Counted from the stretch's first letter, positions 8,194 to 38,561 are shown. The stretch: 64,000 nt of DNA from Terriglobia bacterium (GCA_963698825.1 CAVOSG010000007.1:150548-214547); one strand, 5' to 3'. Notes: a model not told the origin generated them from the letters alone. Made by a program: numbers and translations.

Positions 8194-8492
8194 AGGCCTT
8201 TCCGTTGGCGGTCGGCCCGATCCTGCGGCGTGCGGATGAACATCTCGACCATATAGTCGTGCAGGCAGTCATAGAGCTGGCGCTGGAATCCCCACTCGAA
8301 CTGGGGATGATCAAGGTCGCGGGGATGAAGCTCGAAGTAATAGGTATGCACCGGCACCGAAGGATTCTTGAATTGGATGATGACTTCCACTGCCTCGCCC
8401 TTGGCGCGGGCGGAGAAATCCAGCAGCGGGTGCTCGTAGAGTTTCAGTTGCGCCAGAACACGTTCGAGCTGAGGGTTCGGGTCGTCGGTCAC
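8190..8492 (-). CDS. Hypothetical protein, 100 aa, translationally coupled to the MidA-like gene
   Basis: Clean ORF. Its stop overlaps the downstream gene start (8190-8193). No family recognised. Confidence 0.45.
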   Translation of the reverse strand: MTDDPNPQLERVLAQLKLYEHPLLDFSARAKGEAVEVIIQFKNPSVPVHTYYFELHPRDLDHPQFEWGFQRQLYDCLHDYMVEMFIRTPQDRADRQRKGL

Positions 8493-8546
8493 GTCCCAAT
8501 TCTATCGGGAGTTGGGGTTTCGTGTGGGAGGCGGGTCAGTTGAGTT

Positions 8547-8651
8547 CCAGTTTCTGGTTTCTGGTTTCGAGATCTGATAGTCTGAAGTCAGAAAGCTTGC
8601 CGGAAATTGGATATCGAAACTAGAAATTGGAAACCAGAATCTAGAAACCAG
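8547..8651. repeat. Inverted repeat built from tandem heptamers (TTCTGGT x3 / GAAACCAGA) flanking an approximately 60-nt loop
   Basis: ccagTTTCTGGTTTCTGGTTTCgag ... ggAAACCAGAatctaGAAACCAGttctc. Confidence 0.6.
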
Positions 8652-8658
8652 TTCTCAG

Positions 8659-9898
8659 TTATTCGTATCTTAGGGCTTCGATCGGGTCCAGCTTGGCTGC
8701 TTTGATCGCGGGCAGCATGCCGCTGACGATCCCCACAAAGCTCAGAATGCCGGTGGACCAGATCAGCGTAGCGGCATCGATGGTCAGATGAATGTCGCCT
8801 TCGTCGGCATCCTCTTCAAAAGCGCTCCAGAGCGTCAACGAAGGCACGGACCACGAAACCAGATAGGCGAATGCCACTCCCAGCAGTCCGCCGAGCGCGG
8901 TAATGACCAGGGCCTCGGCCAGGAACTGGAACAGGATGTGCCAGCTCTGGGCGCCCAAGGCTTTTTCCACGCCGATTTCACGGGTACGCTGGGTCACCGC
9001 CACCAGCATGATGTTCATCAGTCCCACTCCGCCAATACCCAGCGTCAGCAAGCCGATAAAACCCAGCAGCACCTTGATGCCGGTGGTGATGACTTCCAGA
9101 TCAGCCAGGTCTGAGAACACATCGAAGATGAAAATCGCCCGCTCGTCCTTGGGATCGAAGTCGTGATGAAACGCCATGGAATGACGCAGCGGCTTCGACC
9201 ACTTTCATATGGTCGCCCTCATATTCCATGACGATGGAGTTCAGGTAGTAGGTATCTTTCAGATCGCTCATCGCGCTGTAGGGCACGTACACATGCTCAT
9301 TCAGATTGTCGTCGCTGTTGTTGATCACGTGCTTCAGAACGCCGACGATTTGGTAGGAAATGCCGTCCACGCGAATACTTTCCCCGATGGCATTCTGGCC
9401 GGAGAACAGCTTTTTCTTGACGTCCGCGCCGATAAACGCCACACGAGTGTGGGTAAAATCCTCAGCCTCGCTGAAGCGACTCCTTCGGCAAATTCCATGC
9501 GGCGCATGCGCGGATAAATCGCGTAGACCCCGCTCACCCCATAGCTGGCGCTCCGCGTCCCGTAGGCGACCGCGCACTGTTTGAAGACCTCAGGCGAGAT
9601 TCGCTTCAGCAAAGGCACTTCTTCACGAATGTATTCCAGGTCGTTGATCGTCAGCTTGACTTCACTTCCGGCCTTGGTGCCGCCGGCCTGGTGCGAAGTC
9701 CGTCCGGGAAACACGAAAACCAGGTTCGTCCCAAAGGATCGAAACGCAGCCCATCAAGCCGCGTTCGAAGCCCGACCCGTAGGCCAGCAGCAAAACCACC
9801 GTGGCAATGCCCCACGCCATGCCCAGCATGGTAAGGGCGCTGCGGCGCTTGTTGAACCGCAGCGCGCTGTAGGCTTGGGTTCCCAGATCTTGAATCAT
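8659..9898 (-). pseudogene. MacB-like ABC transporter permease (FtsX family), broken by at least 3 frameshifts
   Basis: Four consecutive minus ORFs in different frames cover one gene. These are 9662..9898 (N-terminal TM, LRFNKRRSALTMLGMAWGIATVV), 9334..9714 and 9101..9577 (MacB periplasmic domain), and 8659..9177 (FtsX C-terminal TMs, VAVTQRTREIGVEKALGA). Confidence 0.6.
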
Positions 9899-11150: not shown

Positions 11151-11420
11151 TGGTCCCCTATGGGGGCGCGGGCGTCCACGCTCGTGCTCTCCTGCACGTC
11201 TTACGCATTTAGCCCCCGGAGAGTTCGCGTCAAGTTCCCTCGATGTTGCTTTTCAATCACTTGGACTGGGTTCAGGGCAAAAGGATAGCCGCTCATCTTT
11301 CAGCCGACCCTCTGTCCGTTTTTTACACTGCTATCCAGACGTTTGTCTTCCCGTCTAAACGCTCGTTCTTTAGCGCAGGTCCGGCTTTCTCAAAAACAAT
11401 TCGAAGCGGAGGGCTGTTCA

Positions 11421-25107: not shown

Positions 25108-25145
25108 TGTAGGCGCGAGCGTCCTCGCTCGTGCGGCAGCGCCAC
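25107..25145. repeat. REP sequence copy 1 (gtaatgtaGGCGCGAGCGTCCTCGCTCGTGCGGCAGCG)
   Basis: Imperfect palindrome CGAGCG-TCCT-CGCTCG. Copy 2 is nearly identical in inverted orientation. Confidence 0.65.
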
Positions 25146-25737: not shown

Positions 25738-25783
25738 GTCGCTGCCGCACGAGCGAGGACGCTCGCGCCCACATCAACATTAC
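25738..25783. repeat. REP sequence copy 2 (inverted; ...CGCTGCCGCACGAGCGAGGACGCTCGCGCCcacatcaacattac)
   Basis: Reverse complement matches copy 1 over about 35 nt, including the gtaatgt flank. Confidence 0.65.
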
Positions 25784-27955: not shown

Positions 27956-29301
27956 ATGGGGACATTCCTTCTGGGCATACTTGTCGTGGTCAATGTAGTA
28001 CTTCTGGTACTGCTGGCGGCGGTTCTGCGCCGCGGCCTGGGCTCTTCGCAAGGCACTGAAATCACGGATTTGGCGCGGCAAACGGCGCTCTTGCACGATT
28101 CCTTGTGCCAGAAATTCAACGATGCCACGCGAGACATGGCCACGCGTCTCGAAAGCACCAAGGGAGACCTGCGCCAGGGCGTGACCGACCGCCTGACCCA
28201 GGGCTTCAACGAAATTCGCACCTCGGTGGAAGCACAGCTGACCGGCGGACGACGGGAGCAGACTCAGGATCTGCGTGAGGCGCGCACCGAACTTACCACG
28301 TCATTGGCGCTGACCACTTCGCAACTCAAAGTCGAATTCGAGAATCTGAATCAGAAAACGGCGCAGAGTCTCGATTCGATTCGCGACCGCGTGGACGCCA
28401 AGCTGCTCGCCATCACCGACCAGGTGCAGCAAAAGCTCGATCAGAACATCAAGGAGGGATTTGCCCAGTTCGAAAAGGTTCAGCAACACCTGAAAGCGGC
28501 GGAAGAGCAGTTGCGTGAAGTGGGCGCTCTGGGCACTCGATCAACGACTTAAACAACATGCTCAAGTTGCCGCATCTGCGCGGTCAGTTCGGCGAAGCCA
28601 GCCTGGAGCGCTTGCTGTCGGACTTCCTGCCTGCCCACATGTTCGAAATACAGTCCTCCGCCGGCGACGGCAACGGGCGCGCGGATGCCGTGATCCAGTT
28701 TCCCGATCGCCGCCTGCCTATCGACGCGAAGTTTCCCCGCGAACAGGTGCTGGCGCTCTTCGAGAGGAACATCGAATCCGAGATTGAAGAAGCCCGCCAC
28801 GAGTTTGTGCGCGTGATGAAGACCGAAGCCAAGCGGATCAAAGCGTACATTCAGCCCGAACACGGCACGACGGACATTGCCCTGATGTACCTGCCCAGCG
28901 AAACGCTGTACATGGAAGCCATCCGCAATCGCGAGTTGGCCGACTGGCTCAACGTGCAGCATGTGTTTCCGGTATCACCCAATACGCTGCTGATGACCTT
29001 ACAGACGATCGCGCTGGTGCATAAGTGGTATGAAGTGGCCAGCCGCTTCGAAAAGAGCCGCCTGGAGCTGGCTAAGGCGCAAAAGTCGTTCGACCACTTC
29101 CAGAACCAGTTCGAGAATGTCGGCAAGAATCTGAACAAGGCGCAGGAAGCCTTCGATACCGCGCAACGCCACCTGAAGACCTATCGCGGCCGGGTCACCG
29201 CGCTCAGCGGGCAGGAACAGCTGGAATTGGATGCGGCCACCGCAACAACGAAGAGTGAAGAAGAGCCGATCCTGCCGCTGATCGACAAAGCTAGCGCCTA
29301 G
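27956..29301 (+). CDS. rmuC: DNA recombination protein RmuC; one frameshift near 28535
   Basis: ORF 27956..28552 (TM N-terminus plus coiled coil) and ORF 28558..29301 (MLKLPHLRGQFGEASLERLL...DAVIQFPDRRLPIDAKFP...) together form one RmuC. SINDLNN lies in the second frame just upstream of the listed Met. Confidence 0.7.
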
Positions 29302-30304
29302 ATGGCTCGGGTGGCGTGCTAAGCGGAGTCGAAGGACCACTAAGCGGACAATGATATATATCTTGATATACATCTTTTTGTTAGCTATCAAGGTATATAC
29401 CGAGAAAGCGGTTACCTATGCATCGTACCACCAAACTATTGCGGAACGGACGCAGCCGAGCCGTGCGCCGGCCTTCGGAGAACCGGAATTCAGGGCTCTC
29501 GAACTGTTGATACCGTCGCGCTGAGCACCGCCATCGGGGCGACGTTGCCTGTGCACCCCAGAGCCGGAATCTTGGCAGGACTTTTGTCATCCTTAGTGGA
29601 ACTCGATCACGAAGTGAGTGCAGAGTTCATAGCCGATCGGAGATGATCGCTCCGCCCAAGAAGCGAAAGTGCTCTAGCATGGTGCGGCTTACTGTGTCGC
29701 TGCGACACGAATACATGCCAGCTATGCCATCAAGGGCAACCATGCCAGCGTACGCGATCAGCTGTATGACACTCAGCTGTGGCTGACGAACGGCAATATT
29801 CGGTCATCACCGGAGATGAATGCGCTTCGGAATCGCCCGACTTGCCGGCAGCTGTCCCGTCTGAAAGGTCTGGTCAAGGAGTGCCTGCTGTCGAGTTGGC
29901 GTGAATTGCCCGATGGATCTCGTCGACTCGAACATCCCTCGCCGAGATATCGAGCTCCTCTCGGAACGATCATGGGAGCCCGATGGTCCTCATGGACATG
30001 TTGATCTCCGCGCACGCATTTGCCGCGGATGCCATACTGCGACACTCATAGACAGGGTGTTCCGGCGAGTCAAACGTCTCAAGATCGAGGACTGGAATAA
30101 TGCTGACGTTCAGGGTTGCGAATATGTGCGGCCCTCGAAGCAAAATAAGTCGCTGGCCAAATCGAAGGTAGGCTTTCTCGCAACAGTTGAGGGCCATGCA
30201 TATCCTTCCCCCCCGCCACCACAGGGATGGCCCGTGAATCCCACGCTTCGCAAAGTGCGCGAAGCATGGGGCACCCATCGTTTGTTTTTTAAGCGACTTC
30301 GCGT

Positions 30305-30964
30305 CTACGCTCCGCGCTTCGTCTTCAACTCCGCCAGCAACTGCTCGATGCGGTCTTCTTTTTCGAGGGCTGCTAAACGCTCTTCCACATCATCGGCGGC
30401 GATCTCGGATTTGGCCTGGCTGTGGGCGGCGGCGTGGGCGACTTTGCGCTTCATGCGATCGAAGGCGCTGGCGCTGGAACCGTTGCCTGCCGCCATCTTC
30501 GCGTCGCTGGCCTTGCCTACGGCGCGCGCCCGGCGATGCTGGGCGATCAGCAGGTCGGCCTTGGCCTGGGCTTCGGTCAGCTTCTGCTCGAGCTGGCGCA
30601 GCGCGATCTTCAGGTTCTCCACTTGGGCCTTCTGATCGGTTACCTGCTGCGCGAAGCCTTCGCTTAAGTCGCGATAGCTCTCCACGCGTTCGAGGGCGGC
30701 GCGGGCCAGGTCGTCTTTTTTCTTGTCCACGGACAATTCCGCCTTGCGCATCCACTCCGCGACTTTGTCTTCATTTTCCTTTTGCTTTTTTTCCAGCAGG
30801 TGCTGATCGGCAATGGCGATGGCCACCTGCGTCTTGACCTGCAGAAGCTGGTTCTGCATGTCGAGAATGACCTGCTTGATCATTTTTTCCGGATGCTCAG
30901 CCTTGTCGATCAGATCGTTGAGATTGGCCCGGACCAGTGTGGAAACTCGCTCTAGTAATGCCAT
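30305..30964 (-). CDS. pspA: Phage-shock protein A / IM30-family (PspA/Vipp1-like)
   Basis: 219-aa coiled-coil protein with MALLERVSTLVRANLNDLIDKAEHPEKMIKQVILDMQNQL, the canonical PspA N-terminus. Confidence 0.8.
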   Translation of the reverse strand: MALLERVSTLVRANLNDLIDKAEHPEKMIKQVILDMQNQLLQVKTQVAIAIADQHLLEKKQKENEDKVAEWMRKAELSVDKKKDDLARAALERVESYRDLSEGFAQQVTDQKAQVENLKIALRQLEQKLTEAQAKADLLIAQHRRARAVGKASDAKMAAGNGSSASAFDRMKRKVAHAAAHSQAKSEIAADDVEERLAALEKEDRIEQLLAELKTKRGA

Positions 30965-30974
30965 GATGGACTCC

Positions 30975-31012
30975 TTATTAGCTATCAGCCGTCAGCTATC
31001 AGCTTTCAGCTC
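30975..31012. repeat. Heptamer tandem array (AGCTATC AGCCGTC AGCTATC AGCTTTC) immediately upstream of the pspA RBS, with no inverted partner
   Basis: ttAGCTATCAGCCGTCAGCTATCAGCTTTCAGCTcgg. Confidence 0.55.
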
Positions 31013-31200
31013 GGTGTTTTTCGTGAACTTCCTGCGCACTCTGGGCAGTTCGTTCCGCGAAAGTTGCCTCCGATCGCGACCCCGATGGCGATGCCCACTC
31101 CCAGCCACGCCGCAACGTGGCCGGCGGCCACGCCTAACGCGGTGCCAACGCCGGCGCCGAGAACAATGCCCAGAACAATTTGCATCGACGGTTTCTTCAT
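31006..31200 (-). CDS. Small glycine-zipper membrane protein (64 aa)
   Basis: MKKPSMQIVLGIVLGAGVGTALGVAAGHVAAWLGVGIAIGVAIGG with strong RBS (GAGGAAAgaaacATG). Sits between flotillin and pspA on the same strand. Confidence 0.5.
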   Translation of the reverse strand: MKKPSMQIVLGIVLGAGVGTALGVAAGHVAAWLGVGIAIGVAIGGNFRGTNCPECAGSSRKTPS

Positions 31201-31273
31201 GTTTCTTTCCTCAACTTCGGATGCTCGAGAGCAATGGAGGACGGGCGTCCCCGCCCGTCCTCGTCTCGAAGCA

Positions 31274-32719
31274 CTACTTTCCTGCTCCGCCGTTCGACGG
31301 CAACGCGTCGGCCTGGGCGTCTTGTCGCCGATCTGGCGCACCTTGCCCAGCAGCTCGGACATCGGCATCCCGGACAGGGTTTCGAACAACGCCGGCACCT
31401 GGGCCGCCATTTTCGCGATGTCGCCCGTGATCTTGTTCATCCCGGACGAGTCGCCGTTGCCGGTGGACACAATAGTGATCTTGTCCACGTTGGCCAGCGG
31501 AGCTGGCCAGCGCGCGCACGATTTCGGGCATGCCGGTGAACAGCTTGTCGATGACCGCGGCCTGGTTGTATTCCTGGTAGGCCTCGGCTTTCACGTTCAT
31601 GGCCTTGGCTTCAGCTTCGCCCTTCTTGAAGATGATCTCGGCTTCGGCTTCGCCTTGGGCGCGAATCGCAGAGGCATGACCATCCGCTTCCGACATCAGG
31701 CGCTGCTTTTCGGCCAGCGCCAGGGTTTCGATTCTCTGGCGCTCGATTTCGGCGCCCTTCAACACGGTCGCAATCAGTTCTTTCTCGCGGCGGTTGATTT
31801 CCGCTTCCTGCACTTTGACCTGTTGTTCTTTCTCGATCTGCTGCACCTTCACCTGCTCGGCGATGACCTGCTGTTGCATGATGTTGGTCTGAATGTCGTA
31901 GGCCTTGTCAGCCTGCGCCTGCTGCCGCTTGGTGACTTCGACGTACTGCGCTTTCTTCACTTCAAGGTCGCGTTGCGCCTCGGCCTGCTTGGCCAAAGAA
32001 AGCGTTTCCGCCAGGACTCGCTCCTGGTCGGCTTGTGCTCTGGCGACCGCAGATTCGCGTTGCGCGAGGGCGCGCTTGATGGCTGTGTCGCGATCGGCTT
32101 CCGCCGTGGCCACGTCGGCGTCGCGCTTGATGCGGGCCACGTCGGGCTTGCCCATGTTGGTGATGTACTCGTTCTTGTCGCGCACTTCCTTGATGGTGAA
32201 CGAAATGACTTCCAGGCCCATCTTGTTCATGTCTTCCGCGCAAGTGGAGCGCATGCGGTCGGAAACCATTTCCGGCTGCTTCACGATCTCTTCCACCGTG
32301 AGCTGGCCGATGATGCCGCGCAGATGGCCTTCCATTACCAGACGGATCAGACCCTCGCGTTCCTGATCGGTCTTGGTGAGGAATTGTTCCGACGCAGTCA
32401 AGATGGACTCCAGGTCCGACTTGACCTTAATCTGTGCCACCGCTTCGACCGTCACCGCGACGCCCTGCTTGGTGTACAGGTCCTGCTGCGGAGCCACGTC
32501 GAACGACATGAGTTCCAGCGAAAGTTCGCGGCAGATCTGGACCATGGGAAATACCAGCGTGCCGTGGCCTTTGACCACACGCGTGCCGCCCAGTCCGTAC
32601 ACGATGAGCGCTTCATGCGGGCCGGCTTTGCGATAAAGCCGGGCCATGCCGCTCATCAGGAACAGAATGACCATGACGCCCAGGCCGACGAACACCCAAA
32701 TCTCGAAAATGTGTGACAT
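31274..32719 (-). pseudogene. Flotillin-family (SPFH domain) protein, 2 frameshifts near the 3' end (about 31500 and about 31320)
   Basis: MSHIFEIWVFVGLGVMV TM, SPFH core, long EA-rich coiled coil. C-terminal ...VDKITIVSTGNGDSSGMNKITGDIAKMAAQVPALFETLSGMPMSELLGKV lies in a second frame (ORF 31006..31488). Confidence 0.65.
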
Positions 32720-32828
32720 CCCCAACATATTGCCTCCTCTTTCGAGTGCCCCCACTAGACTCTCGACCAACTCAGAGCTTCAACCACAAAGGGCACGAAG
32801 TTACACGAAGGAAATCAAAGCATTCGCT

Positions 32829-33761
32829 TCATGTATTCTCGCGAGCTTTCTGGTTCTGCCGGATCAAGTTCAAGTCGTTCATAATTTTCTCCGGCTCACT
32901 GTGGCCCAGAAATACTTCTCCGTCGGAAAGCGTGATGCGAACACCGCGGTTTCCCCAAACGTAGGCTCGCCGTTCGCCGATACCGCGAATCCCATATCCG
33001 CCCATCGGGTTCCAGGATGCGACCGCATACGCCCTGATGTTTTGCACGGGGATGGAGCGCAGGCGGAAACCGAGCGTGCTGATCTCGACGCCCTGCGGCG
33101 AAAAGCGATAGTGAAACCCGCTCCAGGCCAGCGCCGTGACTCCGAACAGGAGCAGCGCGGGTAATGCCATCACCAGCCGCAATCCAGGCAGCGGAATCAC
33201 CGCAATCACAATCAGTTCAATCACGGTGATGGAAACAAACACGAGGGCCCAAAGAGACGACGCGTGCACTTCCTCGGCTTCCAACAGTCCGGGACTGCGC
33301 GGCAATACGGCGCCACGCTTTGCGCTCAAGGCAATCGCGGTCACCACGAACGCCGCCACAAATACCGCAACCATTTCGGGCACGATGTTCAGCGGCCGGC
33401 CATGAACGTTGTAGTTCAGGACCGAGGAATTGATGCTGATCAGCACACCCATCACGACATAGAACATCGCCAGCAACGACCAGGCCAGAGCATCGGGCCG
33501 GCGGAGTCGGGTGAGTACCCAGGTAAACGTTGTCAGCAGGAAGGCCAGCAATGCCAAGAAGAAGATGACTGAAGTCTCCCGCGACATCCAGCCATTGGGC
33601 TGGCCTGTAGCTCCGAAGTGCGACGCTACCCGGGCCGGCAACTGGTCCCATACTCTCCAATACTGAAAGGCAGCCAGGGGCAGCGCCAGCCAGAGCAGCG
33701 CGGTCATCGTCCGATAGCACCCGGTCCGATCAATTTTGGTCCGATCGAGATGGCTGTCCAT
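32829..33761 (-). CDS. Membrane protein with N-terminal DUF1648 (SdpI-like) and C-terminal bacterial PH-like domain
   Basis: WDQLPARVASHFGATGQPNGWMSRE (DUF1648 motif), multiple TMs, C-terminal FHYRFSPQGVEISTLGFRLRSIPVQNIRAY...GIRGIGERRAYVWG. Confidence 0.5.
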   Translation of the reverse strand: MDSHLDRTKIDRTGCYRTMTALLWLALPLAAFQYWRVWDQLPARVASHFGATGQPNGWMSRETSVIFFLALLAFLLTTFTWVLTRLRRPDALAWSLLAMFYVVMGVLISINSSVLNYNVHGRPLNIVPEMVAVFVAAFVVTAIALSAKRGAVLPRSPGLLEAEEVHASSLWALVFVSITVIELIVIAVIPLPGLRLVMALPALLLFGVTALAWSGFHYRFSPQGVEISTLGFRLRSIPVQNIRAYAVASWNPMGGYGIRGIGERRAYVWGNRGVRITLSDGEVFLGHSEPEKIMNDLNLIRQNQKARENT

Positions 33762-33795
33762 TTACCTCTCCTAGACTGCCCGAACAATTACCTGA

Positions 33796-33835
33796 ACCGC
33801 TCTTGCCGCGGGAGCACGAGCGAGGACGCTCGCGC
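33796..33835. repeat. REP sequence copy 3
   Basis: ccgcgggaGCACGAGCGAGGACGCTCGCGCCtacattgaatc. Same family and orientation as copy 2. Confidence 0.6.
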
Positions 33836-34492
33836 CTACATTGAATCTGCTTCGCCCGACATCTCCGTCCACAGACGCACGTACGCAATGCCTTTCTGAT
33901 AGCGCGTTACTACCACTTCCGTTCCCTTTGGGATCGCGCTTCCATCTTCTCCGCGAGCTCCACACGTCCGCCGCGTCCCGGCTTGCGAATAAATGATTTC
34001 TCCCGTACCGCTCGCGCGAATGGGAACTGAAACTCTGCCCAGCACTCCTGTCATTTCGTAGTCGGCGGGATCCATGATTTCTTCCTGCGAGATCAGCACC
34101 CGGCTAAGAAAAAGAAACACGATGGTGCCGCCGATCAGGCCGCTGCCTATGGCCAGCGAAAGGCCGGTTACGAACCACACCGTGGAGAAGCGTGTGAGCA
34201 GAAAGCCGGTCCCCCCGAACCAGGCGAGAAAGGCCGTCAGAGTGACAAAGTTCAAGGGCGCGATTTGTGTAGTGGGGCCGTGCGCCGGAGCTTGCCCAGC
34301 ACCGGTTGCGCTCGCCGGCCCTGAAGCGACCGGTGGCGCACCGTGTCCGGCAGCAACGTGGGGCGCCGCCACATGCACATGAGAAAAGTGTGGCAGGTGG
34401 AGATGCCAGCGCAGACCTCCAGCGAGAAACGACAGCAGGCTGAAGAAGAATCCCAGCGCGAAACAAATGAGATAGAAATCTGCCCAAGTCAT
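33836..34492 (-). CDS. NfeD-family (short, OB-fold) membrane protein
   Basis: N-terminal TM helices plus C-terminal beta-rich GVLGRVSVPIRASGTGEIIYSQAGTRRTCGARGEDGSAIPKGTEVVVTRYQKGIAYV typical of NfeD/YuaF. Start overlaps the stop of the upstream XRE gene. Confidence 0.6.
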   Translation of the reverse strand: MTWADFYLICFALGFFFSLLSFLAGGLRWHLHLPHFSHVHVAAPHVAAGHGAPPVASGPASATGAGQAPAHGPTTQIAPLNFVTLTAFLAWFGGTGFLLTRFSTVWFVTGLSLAIGSGLIGGTIVFLFLSRVLISQEEIMDPADYEMTGVLGRVSVPIRASGTGEIIYSQAGTRRTCGARGEDGSAIPKGTEVVVTRYQKGIAYVRLWTEMSGEADSM

Positions 34493-35004
34493 AGGCGTCG
34501 TCTCCCTTCCCTGCTCTGGCCCCGCGGCACACTGGCCAGGTGGGGCTGCAGCGCCTCCAGTAAACGGTCAGCCAGGCCGGGCGTATCGAGAATCGCTCCC
34601 AGCAGCAGGAAACACCGCCGCGTGTCCTTCTCGCGCGCCGCTTTGATCAGAACTTCACTCAGTGGCGGATCACTGGCGAAACGCTCCGAACCCTGCAGCA
34701 GCCAGACATCGAGTTTGCCTTCCGTGGTGCGTAAGTCGGAGACCAGTTCGGTGTGGTAGCCCTCGGGATCGTCCACCAAAAACCCGGGATGAATCTTGAA
34801 AAACTTCGCCAACAGCGTGCGCGTGGACTGCGTCATGTGGCGGCGCGCGCCGCTCTCGATCTGCGAGACGTAAGACTGGCTGATGCTCTTGCCCTGCTCC
34901 TTGCGGATGGCACGGACCAACTCTTGCTGGGTCAGGGGACGTCCCAGGCCGCGCAGCGAGCCTTCCACTTCACGCAGGTAACGAATTTTCTCGGCGACCG
35001 TCAT
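34489..35004 (-). CDS. XRE-family helix-turn-helix transcriptional regulator
   Basis: LTQQELVRAIRKEQGKSISQSYVSQIESGARRHMTQSTRTLLAKFF is an HTH_XRE. Translationally coupled to the NfeD gene. Confidence 0.65.
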   Translation of the reverse strand: MTVAEKIRYLREVEGSLRGLGRPLTQQELVRAIRKEQGKSISQSYVSQIESGARRHMTQSTRTLLAKFFKIHPGFLVDDPEGYHTELVSDLRTTEGKLDVWLLQGSERFASDPPLSEVLIKAAREKDTRRCFLLLGAILDTPGLADRLLEALQPHLASVPRGQSREGRRRL

Positions 35005-35007
35005 TTC

Positions 35008-35055
35008 CTGAATATTGCAGATCGCGATATTTATATGCCATATTGCTATATTCAG
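35008..35055. promoter_or_regulatory. AT-rich inverted repeat (cTGAATATTGCAgat...tgcTATATTCAG) directly upstream of the XRE-NfeD operon; candidate operator/promoter
   Basis: 12-nt arms with one mismatch and about 24-nt spacer, starting 4 nt upstream of the XRE start codon. Confidence 0.4.
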
Positions 35056-35290
35056 TCAAGAACTGGATATGGCGTATTTCCGGTGGTTTACAGGTTAGCT
35101 TTGTGGAATTTGGAGACTACACTTGCCCGGCGCGTTCCCAGCCACCGGGATAGGCAGTGATCAGCCCAAGGTCATCCATCTGAAGTTCGGCGGAGAAGCC
35201 GGTGCCGCTGCCGTGAGCGGCAAGATTGCGCCATACGACCGAGCGCAGCAGCGTTCCCGGCGAAGCTGAGGATCGAAGCATAAGCGCACT

Positions 35291-35689: not shown

Positions 35690-35725
35690 CTCCGCACGAG
35701 CGGGACGCTCGCGCCCACATGAAAA
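35690..35725. repeat. REP sequence copy 4 (slightly diverged)
   Basis: tctccGCACGAGCGGGACGCTCGCGCCcacatg. Confidence 0.55.
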
Positions 35726-35768: not shown

Positions 35769-36374
35769 TTACTGGACGCGCGCGTTGTGCTTCTTGCGAT
35801 AGATGGCGCGCGAGGTACGGTTTTCCTGATGATTGACCTGGCGGCGCTCGGCTGCAGTCAGCTTGCCACCGTTGGCCACGCGATCATTGTGAACTTCCTT
35901 GTTGATCGCCGATTCGCGGCCTTCGAGGTGAGCGGTTTCGCCGGCAGTCAACTGGCCGCTCTTTACACCCTGGGCAATCCGCTCCTGCTGATTGCGCTCG
36001 CGCTGTCCAACTTCGCTCTTGGGATCGACGTTCTGTACGCGGGCGTTGTGCTTGTCCTTGTAGATGTTATTGGAGAGCTTGTTCTGCTGCTGGTTCAGAG
36101 TGGCGCGATCGGCAGCAGTCAGGTGACCGTTGTCCAGTTTGCGCATGTCGTGCTCTTCGTGGTTCAGCTCGGATTCCTTCTTCTCCAGATTCTTGGTCTC
36201 GCCTGCGGTCAGTTCACCGCTCTGGACGCCATTGGCGATGCGATCCTGCTGGTTTTCCTTGCGCTGGTTGATGGTGGCCGGCGCGGCCGCCGGGGCGCTG
36301 CTTTGCGCGGCAGCCGGCAGCATGAAGGCCGCCATGACCGCGGTCAAGATAAGACCTTTGTTTTGTGACTTCAT
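35769..36374 (-). CDS. Secreted tandem-repeat protein with LTAGE/LTAAER motifs (possible LTXXQ / Spy-CpxP-like periplasmic protein)
   Basis: Signal peptide MKSQNKGLILTAVMAAFMLPAAAQ, then two about 75-aa repeats: NQQ(D/E)RIA.GV.SG.LTAGET..LE..ES..N.E.H..R...G.LTAA.R...N.Q.N..S..IY..KHNARVQ. Confidence 0.45.
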   Translation of the reverse strand: MKSQNKGLILTAVMAAFMLPAAAQSSAPAAAPATINQRKENQQDRIANGVQSGELTAGETKNLEKKESELNHEEHDMRKLDNGHLTAADRATLNQQQNKLSNNIYKDKHNARVQNVDPKSEVGQRERNQQERIAQGVKSGQLTAGETAHLEGRESAINKEVHNDRVANGGKLTAAERRQVNHQENRTSRAIYRKKHNARVQ

Positions 36375-36571
36375 ATGGTTCTCCCTGGCTCCCTTGATTC
36401 CCACTGCTTGCCCGTTTTTCGGGTCACATCTTCAAACACAGTGTGTAAAGAAATGTTGCGCCGGAAAAGGGCAATCATCGACAACGCACATCCTAGTAAC
36501 GGTTACCAAAGTCGGTGGCCCGCGGTCTGCGCGGCCTTCAGTATGGAAGGAAATGAGGAAACTGCGTGCGG

Positions 36572-37429: not shown

Positions 37430-37461
37430 GATCAGTCTCGAATTCCGCTACGCCTTGTATT

Positions 37462-38386
<925 letters not shown>

Positions 38387-38561
38387 TGGCCTTCGGTCGT
38401 TGGTCGTTGGCCATTCCTCGTCGGTCATTCTTCATTTGCTGGCTTCACTTGCTGGCTGGCAAATCATCCACCTGAATTCCGGCTCCGGCTGGTTGCTTTA
38501 CTCTTCTTCTTCAACCTTTTCTTGTTTTCAACATCAGTTTTCGGTTCTTTGTTCCCGGTTC

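Follow-up and report, generated by a model that had tools for sequence, protein, structure and literature searches.

The DNA described here is a 64,000-nt stretch (the window) of the genome of a Terriglobia bacterium (GCA_963698825.1 CAVOSG010000007.1:150548-214547), and all coordinates are window positions. Six consecutive open reading frames (ORFs) lie on its minus strand between 30305 and 35059 and, as we discuss below, probably form a single operon concerned with membrane stress. From the upstream end, the locus encodes an XRE-family regulator (171 aa, 34489-35004), an NfeD-like membrane protein (218 aa, 33836-34492), an accessory membrane protein with a DUF1648 domain (310 aa, 32829-33761), a FloT-like flotillin of the SPFH family (484 aa once repaired, 31274-32728), a small glycine-zipper (Gly-zipper) membrane protein (66 aa once repaired, 30999-31200) and, as the last gene, PspA/IM30, an ESCRT-III-like membrane-remodelling protein (219 aa, 30305-30964). 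A promoter with two predicted operators (35012-35059) precedes the XRE gene, and a GC-rich hairpin (31237-31262) follows the flotillin gene, all on the same strand. The original prediction for this DNA had placed six same-strand genes here, and these are present. Its family assignments fared unevenly: PspA, flotillin and DUF1648 were recovered by profile, the XRE assignment is marginal by HTH_3, the NfeD assignment has support at the level of a family profile, and the proposed PH domain is not established.

Conservation of the Gene Order

With the XRE protein as bait against one genome per GTDB species, 80 loci were obtained, all from Terriglobia, Terriglobales or Acidobacteriaceae metagenome-assembled genomes. 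The genes stand on one strand and in one order (XRE, NfeD, DUF1648 where present, flotillin, peptide where present, PspA) at every one of these 80 species-representative loci. All six genes are found at 49 loci; the peptide is not detectable by tblastn at 20, DUF1648 is missing at 8, and at the remaining 3 the contig ends early. Neighbours outside the block vary: RmuC, a 211-aa secreted protein and the ABM gene accompany it at some loci only, mainly in closer relatives. The conserved unit is therefore the block itself. Spacing within the block is tight, with median gaps between successive genes of -4, 35, 54, 84 and 36 nt in 84 related loci. The first of these values, the overlap of XRE with NfeD, is -4 at the first quartile, the median and the third quartile alike. 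In the window the overlap reads ATGA, in line with the coupling of the two genes proposed earlier. Purifying selection on the encoded proteins is strong: within Terriglobia, XRE is at least 76% identical, flotillin at least 84% in all but one locus, and PspA at least 78% (range 78-97%).

Distant relatives of the XRE protein were sought among 1.84 billion cluster representatives. The search found 472, including full-length ones at 38-48% identity, and a scan of metagenome contigs with their alignment gave 80 further loci. Wherever the contig was long enough, these carry XRE, NfeD, flotillin and PspA in that order. An intermediate clade, with XRE proteins 59-66% identical, has these four genes only. 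The four are also kept in a distant clade with XRE proteins 40-46% identical, which belongs to the Ktedonobacteria (phylum Chloroflexota). In the record of Ktedonosporobacter rubrisoli (CP035758.1) the order is XRE, a 110-aa protein with two transmembrane (TM) segments, NfeD_TM, Band_7/Flot and PspA; the same five-gene arrangement occurs in contigs that encode an XRE homologue named by NCBI from Thermosporothrix hazakensis. One distant metagenome locus (L149) has a second, short PspA paralogue (8465-9004; PF04012, E=4.7e-13) between XRE and NfeD. Since the intermediate clade and the Ktedonobacteria have the four-gene core, DUF1648 and the Gly-zipper peptide are accessories. By this comparison the core consists of XRE, NfeD, flotillin and PspA, and the other two genes are dispensable additions specific to Terriglobia.

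Promoter and Operators

The region upstream of XRE, aligned for 79 loci, is highly conserved. Its consensus, CTTGACATATATTGCAAATTGCAATATAAATATCGCGATTTGCAATATG, contains a -35 element (TTGACA), a 17-nt spacer, a -10 element (TATAAA) and a start codon about 16 nt past the -10; CTTGAC, the -10 and the operators are near-invariant. The short distance from the -10 to the start codon implies a very short leader; a Shine-Dalgarno sequence is usually absent from it. In the window the -35 is TTGACT (35054-35059) and the -10 is TATAAA (35030-35035), and the leader differs by a 7-nt insertion that adds AGGA.

Two predicted operators, each a 19-mer with the palindromic form AT.GC-N5-GC.AT, lie over this promoter with their centers 21 bp apart. 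O1 (35033-35051) covers the spacer and the -10, while O2 (35012-35030) covers the expected transcription start. A 12-nt inverted repeat noticed earlier at the XRE promoter (35008-35019 and 35044-35055, 11 of 12 positions complementary) is present, and consists of the left half of O1 paired with the right half of O2. Sites were counted in 156 loci of all clades: at least one was found upstream of XRE in 149 of them, against 5.3% of control segments, and at least two in 90, against 0.14%. Of 93 pairs of sites, 83 are spaced 21-22 nt apart. Half-sites vary by lineage (ATTGC in Terriglobia, ATAGC or ATAAC in Ktedonobacteria) with unchanged placement. No further good operator site was found in the 64-kb window, and elsewhere in the loci sites of this type occur at background frequency.

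Promoters were scanned with a relaxed sigma-70 rule, as a stricter rule misses the XRE promoter, whose -10 ends in A. A sigma-70-like promoter was found upstream of XRE in 81 of 84 loci, compared with 3% of random segments. By the same scan none was found in any locus upstream of NfeD, DUF1648, flotillin or the peptide (0/61 for the peptide), and the 3 found upstream of PspA in 82 loci correspond to the background level. The pattern, with a lone recognizable sigma-70-type promoter before XRE, fits a single operon that is putatively autorepressed. The original prediction had named a gene order not conserved in relatives, together with independent transcription, as what would speak against it; the order is kept at 80/80 loci, and a single promoter of the sigma-70 type was found.

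The Encoded Proteins

The XRE protein scores 22.2 bits against HTH_3, slightly below the cut-off of 23, and its membership in that family is thus marginal. In a profile search of the PDB its nearest solved relative is EspR of Mycobacterium tuberculosis (E=8e-6, residues 23-80). A Foldseek search with the predicted model gave EspR for all top matches and also matched SinR, cI and DdrO. An EspR-like helix-turn-helix (HTH) region (residues ~1-80) is followed by a C-terminal domain of three helices (~94-139) that is conserved as strongly as the HTH. No known relative or fold was matched by this C-terminal domain, and the model has a pLDDT of 62. Confidence in the model is limited because the alignments are shallow (sequences at least 71-79% identical), as they are for the DUF1648 protein. 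Clustered at 90% identity, its homologues fall into more than 8000 groups, of which the top 120 share at least 79% identity along the entire protein. We also considered, and rejected, that the regulator derives from a prophage or a toxin-antitoxin system, as phage genes are absent and every locus examined shows the conserved context. Many Ktedonobacteria-like homologues (P0414-P0508, P0442) carry a precomputed match to PF12424 (calcium ATPase C-terminal), and the homologue from T. hazakensis bears the NCBI name 'plasma membrane calcium transporter ATPase-like protein'. The PF12424 label was probably assigned to the C-terminal helical domain in error.

The NfeD-like protein has, by hydropathy, an N-terminal TM segment, a His-rich loop and further TM segments, followed by a C-terminal OB-like domain. 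The OB fold proposed for it earlier is not significant for the single sequence (PF01957, 13.7 bits against a cut-off of 29.1, E=0.074), and none of 42 homologues reaches E=0.01 against PF01957 in the local Pfam copy. It is supported at the family level: a profile of the 42 sequences matches the OB domain of Bacillus subtilis YuaF (PDB 2K14; E=0.0012, residues 133-204). NfeD_TM (PF25842) is precomputed for homologues, unmarked in three loci (L003-L005) and faint in others, and was not reproduced with the local Pfam copy, even for the protein of L003. The gene is invariably upstream of flotillin, in Terriglobia and in the distant clades. The His-rich loop (HLHLPHFSHVHVAAPHVAAGHG; residues ~28-60, ~34310-34410) lies between the first and the later TM segments and is longer in Ktedonobacteria (L168, 8149-8964). 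It may be a metal-binding or pH-sensing segment. To our knowledge, such a loop is not a described feature of the yuaF-floT or yqiJ-yqiK pairs that are compared below.

The DUF1648 protein matches PF07853 with 44.6 bits (cut-off 28.7) over residues 34-72. The N-terminal DUF1648 is followed by two TM helices and a beta-rich C-terminal domain, and the gene is modular in relatives, which have it at full length, as the DUF1648 half only, as the 2TM and beta-rich half only, or not at all. The bacterial PH domain attributed to this protein earlier is not established. No bPH profile matches the window protein; among 31 homologues bPH_5 appears below threshold in 5 (best E=0.01) and DUF4307 in 11. The C-terminal part of the model has seven strands and a C-terminal helix in a PH-like order, at a pLDDT of 32-43 (59.5 for the whole). 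Profile searches of the PDB with the protein and with its C-terminal domain gave no match, and Foldseek on the model returned nothing below E=0.7.

The flotillin matches Band_7 with 108.3 bits (cut-off 23.6) and has an N-terminal hydrophobic segment (residues 1-32). Its start is more likely the ATG at 32728 than the TTG at 32770. The score against the FloT equivalog NF058507 (284 bits) is below the cut-off of 700, and orthology to B. subtilis FloT is therefore not claimed. As assembled, the gene is interrupted. DNA alignment to L001 and L002, two contigs about 90-93% identical to the region and about 93% identical in the cluster, revealed an extra C at ~31502 and a missing A at ~31309. The two indels compensate for each other, such that start and stop are in register and the 65 conserved codons between them are out of frame. 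The stretch affected is the conserved C-terminal Flot segment, including VDKITIVSTGNG. The repaired protein is identical to that of L001 at 482 of 484 positions, compared with 427 for the raw reading, and the L001 protein (99.6% identical to the repaired one) matches Flot (PF15975) with 37.3 bits against a cut-off of 27. The peptide gene is affected in the same way, by a 1-bp insertion at ~31033. Because the encoded proteins are under strong purifying selection, the indels are probably errors of a noisy long-read assembly and not signs of gene decay. The related contig L002 carries indels of its own. On the opposite strand, a 550-aa ORF (31064-32716, +) antisense to flotillin was set aside as a likely by-product of the repeat-rich coding strand (rich in Glu, Ala and Gln) rather than a gene.

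The hairpin downstream of flotillin begins 12 nt past the stop codon and has an 11-bp stem and a GGGA loop. Among 76 loci, 69 have a hairpin of -12 kcal/mol or stronger in the corresponding gap, and the stems differ in sequence. The element may act as an attenuator or stabilize the upstream RNA.

The Gly-zipper peptide reads as a 64-aa ORF (31006-31200) in the assembly as it stands, owing to the insertion. Repair restores the tail ...NCPECAEVHEKHRAES as in relatives, and with it a predicted cytoplasmic segment, CPECAEVHEKH. The ribosome binding site that had been noted for this gene is present as GAGGA upstream. Of 76 loci searched by motif, 59 have a homologous ORF at this place, past flotillin and before PspA; 42 of the 59 peptides have CxxC and 34 have CxxC-x2-4-HxxH. 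The tail could possibly bind zinc. The peptide matches no Pfam family.

PspA matches PF04012 with 135.2 bits (cut-off 33.9) over residues 3-217. Its scores are below the cut-offs of the proteobacterial equivalogs (TIGR02977, 131 bits against 243; NF007974, 95 bits against 336) and of LiaH (NF045984, 47.6 bits against 380). Among the cluster genes there is no match to PspB, PspC or PspF families, no PspM or PspN (DUF3046) family is reported, and no two-component system of the LiaFSR kind is present. Downstream of PspA, a repeat-like intergenic segment (30225-30290) holds a short hairpin (ATGGGTGCCCCAT) followed by a T run on the opposite strand; a bidirectional terminator is one possibility, a further dispersed repeat another.

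Repeats and Flanking Genes

A palindromic element resembling REP sequences, GCGCGAGCGTCC(N)CGCTCGTGC, is found as a 22-mer in four copies in the window (11166-11187, 25113-25134, 25747-25768 and 33814-33835), compared with 0.01 expected by chance. The last of these is on the minus strand directly past the NfeD stop, between it and the DUF1648 start, and thus inside the operon. A shorter variant (35697-35712) lies upstream of the ABM gene, which is unrelated, at a distance of about 690 nt from where XRE starts. The suggestion that REP copies bound the cluster is therefore not tenable, and these elements were rejected as limits of the module. Among related loci with a gap past the NfeD stop, 46 in all, the REP-like element is found there in 8.

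Upstream of the cluster, a 211-aa protein (35769-36404, -) has a hydrophobic N-terminal segment and two internal repeats with LTAxxR...N.Q.N motifs, and matches no family profile. Its gene is on the same strand, at most 1.2 kb upstream of XRE, in 34 of 76 Terriglobia loci, and it may be a loosely linked envelope protein. In L001 and L002 a 181-aa Glycolipid_bind gene (PF06475) lies between the ABM gene and the XRE promoter; in the window (35117-35281, -) about 420 nt of it are absent (L001 3053-3473 is unaligned) and a 54-aa remnant ORF is left. The RmuC gene (27956-29301) is, like flotillin, disrupted by a 1-bp indel, at ~28534. An ABC permease gene (~37450-38430) is split into two overlapping frames (37448-38428 and 37462-37698) and has a similar look, unaligned.

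Model of the Operon and Its Alternatives

We read the region as one autoregulated operon, XRE-NfeD-[DUF1648/PH-like]-flotillin-[Gly-zipper peptide]-PspA, most likely a module for membrane stress and membrane repair, and assign this reading, which derives from comparative sequence analysis, a probability of about 0.7. In this model two dimers of the EspR-like XRE protein, bound to the predicted O1 and O2 on the same face of the DNA, would repress the operon that encodes them, until a signal derived from the membrane lifts the repression. Plausibly, a protein made from the operon itself would capture the highly conserved C-terminal helical domain, in a partner switch like those of PspA with PspF and ClgR with PspA. 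Upon expression, the OB domain of the NfeD protein would mediate its pairing with flotillin, which is membrane-anchored, and the resulting scaffold would bring PspA to damaged or fluidized membrane, a role that falls to the SPFH protein YdjI in B. subtilis. Lineage-specific membrane anchoring or sensing may be the task of the Gly-zipper peptide, with its possible zinc-binding tail, and of the DUF1648 protein. The hairpin past flotillin probably sets how much of the upstream products is made relative to the downstream ones.

Several points weigh against this model. The evidence is genome comparison, and the operon is known in these organisms from sequence alone. The mechanism of derepression is conjectural, since nothing known resembles the C-terminal domain of XRE and the pLDDT of the model is only 62. 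The promoter scan covers sigma-70 only, and an internal stress promoter for an alternative sigma factor, for example inside the 3' end of flotillin, is possible. In three loci (L027, L033, L036) the hairpin past flotillin is accompanied by T runs and might be a real terminator that splits off PspA; the hairpin counts are without a control for other gaps. Finally, the flotillin and peptide genes are frameshifted as assembled, and this copy would be defective if the indels were real.

A bolder version of the model can be put forward tentatively, and on present evidence we think it doubtful. It holds that the EspR-like XRE protein is an ancient dedicated sensor-repressor of a flotillin/ESCRT-III repair machine in Acidobacteriota and Chloroflexota, that its invariant C-terminal domain is captured at the membrane by PspA, NfeD or flotillin on damage, and that the CxxC-HxxH peptide is a zinc- or redox-sensitive membrane anchor for PspA. 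If this were true, the capture of XRE would amount to a partner-switch circuit of a new type that differs from PspF, ClgR and LiaRS.

The alternative that survives best is that the locus consists of two linked units, an XRE-controlled NfeD-flotillin operon ending at the hairpin and a separately controlled PspA gene, with or without the peptide. The main argument for it is the frequent hairpin at this position, with terminator-like T runs in some loci; NfeD-flotillin pairs without PspA are widespread (PMC11237479), and PspA is often monocistronic in other phyla (PMC9239133). In compact loci, however, the interval from flotillin to PspA measures only 48-99 nt, and the stretch of about 25 nt between the hairpin and the start codon is too short to hold a promoter. 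The scan also gave no sigma-70-like promoter before the peptide and nothing above background before PspA, and PspA is adjacent in every clade, including that of the other phylum. We therefore regard two separately controlled units as unlikely.

It has also to be considered that the XRE protein is a global nucleoid-associated regulator like EspR, merely co-transcribed with these genes and with its main targets elsewhere. A nucleoid-associated role is described for EspR, the nearest relative of solved structure, and the extreme conservation of XRE would fit numerous partners or targets. On the other hand, two precisely placed predicted operators cover its own promoter in nearly all loci, sites elsewhere are lacking in the window or at background in the loci, and the XRE gene always heads the operon, in two phyla; a global role of this kind is thus quite improbable. 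The idea that unrelated membrane genes came to lie together by chance, or for purely historical reasons, is effectively refuted by synteny, the identical order at 80/80 loci despite varying flanks, the core common to two phyla and the XRE/NfeD start-stop overlap leaving it a negligible probability.

Returning to the single autoregulated operon, its presence in every sampled species representative together with strong purifying selection suggests that it is probably a central membrane-maintenance system of Terriglobia. This class counts among the most abundant bacteria in soil, and its means of withstanding acid, drying and membrane-active compounds are poorly understood. The operon yields a regulatory model with a single promoter, two 19-bp predicted operators and one small repressor. 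Ktedonobacteria, with at least one complete genome on record, could serve as a second model for the cooperation of an SPFH scaffold with ESCRT-III-like PspA.

Comparison with Known Systems

The experimental analogue of the Terriglobia operon is pspA-ydjGHI (samGHI) of B. subtilis, where recruitment of PspA to the membrane requires YdjI, an SPFH protein, together with two membrane anchors, YdjG and YdjH (Scholz et al., 2021; PMC8581546). Both systems co-encode PspA with an SPFH protein and membrane anchors, with zinc-finger or zinc-ribbon motifs among the partner proteins as a possible further likeness. They differ in layout and control. In B. subtilis the PspA gene is first, YdjI is soluble and short, and the anchors are YdjG and YdjH (TPM-domain, according to Ravi et al.); here PspA is last, the flotillin is membrane-anchored and of the FloT type, and NfeD takes the place of the anchors. 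The B. subtilis operon is under sigma-W and has no operon-encoded repressor, whereas XRE is encoded in the operon described here.

YuaF/YqiJ-type proteins pair with FloT-type flotillins (PMC11237479). The yuaF-floT genes of B. subtilis and yqiJ-yqiK of E. coli likewise place a multi-TM protein with a C-terminal OB domain directly upstream of a FloT-type flotillin, but these pairs have neither PspA nor a dedicated repressor. PspA operons with band-7/flotillin proteins and with Cro-type regulators (ClgR) have been catalogued (PMC11237479). In the actinobacterial clgR-pspA-pspM-pspN operon, a Cro/XRE-type HTH regulator also heads a PspA operon and is accompanied by a small integral membrane partner (PMC11237479). 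That operon has no flotillin or NfeD, and ClgR is stated to be unique to Actinobacteria (PMC11237479). The regulator described here is longer, has an extra C-terminal domain and finds its nearest solved relative in EspR; it is set apart from ClgR by description rather than by direct sequence comparison. EspR itself shares a homologous HTH followed by a C-terminal domain, but it is a nucleoid-associated protein that regulates ESX-1 secretion in a wholly different genomic context, and kinship of its C-terminal domain to that of XRE is not demonstrable.

The closest precedent is a prediction. A search of the literature on Acidobacteria with flotillin and phage shock protein found no paper, nor was experimental work on the operon found. 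Popp et al. (2022, mSystems; PMC9239133) reported, however, that PspA of Acidobacteriota is associated with Band7_Flot (11/19 genomes), NfeD and operon-encoded HTH regulators, and drew a predicted Acidobacteriota network from gene neighborhoods. The phylum and the association of PspA, Band7_Flot, NfeD and HTH are the same as ours. The central idea is thus already published as a prediction, and the operon is of the kind foreseen, a well-documented variant and not a new system. An uncharacterized membrane-microdomain or stress module, as the original prediction had it, is accordingly supported as a module and not as a novelty. The published network rests on domain-level neighborhood statistics for 19 genomes, and its main text does not cover the EspR-like family, the operators, the occurrence in Ktedonobacteria, DUF1648 (0 mentions) or the Gly-zipper accessories. 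What is added here is the anatomy of the operon, the family of the regulator and its conservation, the pair of predicted operators, the placing of DUF1648 and the peptide among the accessories, a possible zinc-binding tail on the latter, and the core shared with Ktedonobacteria.

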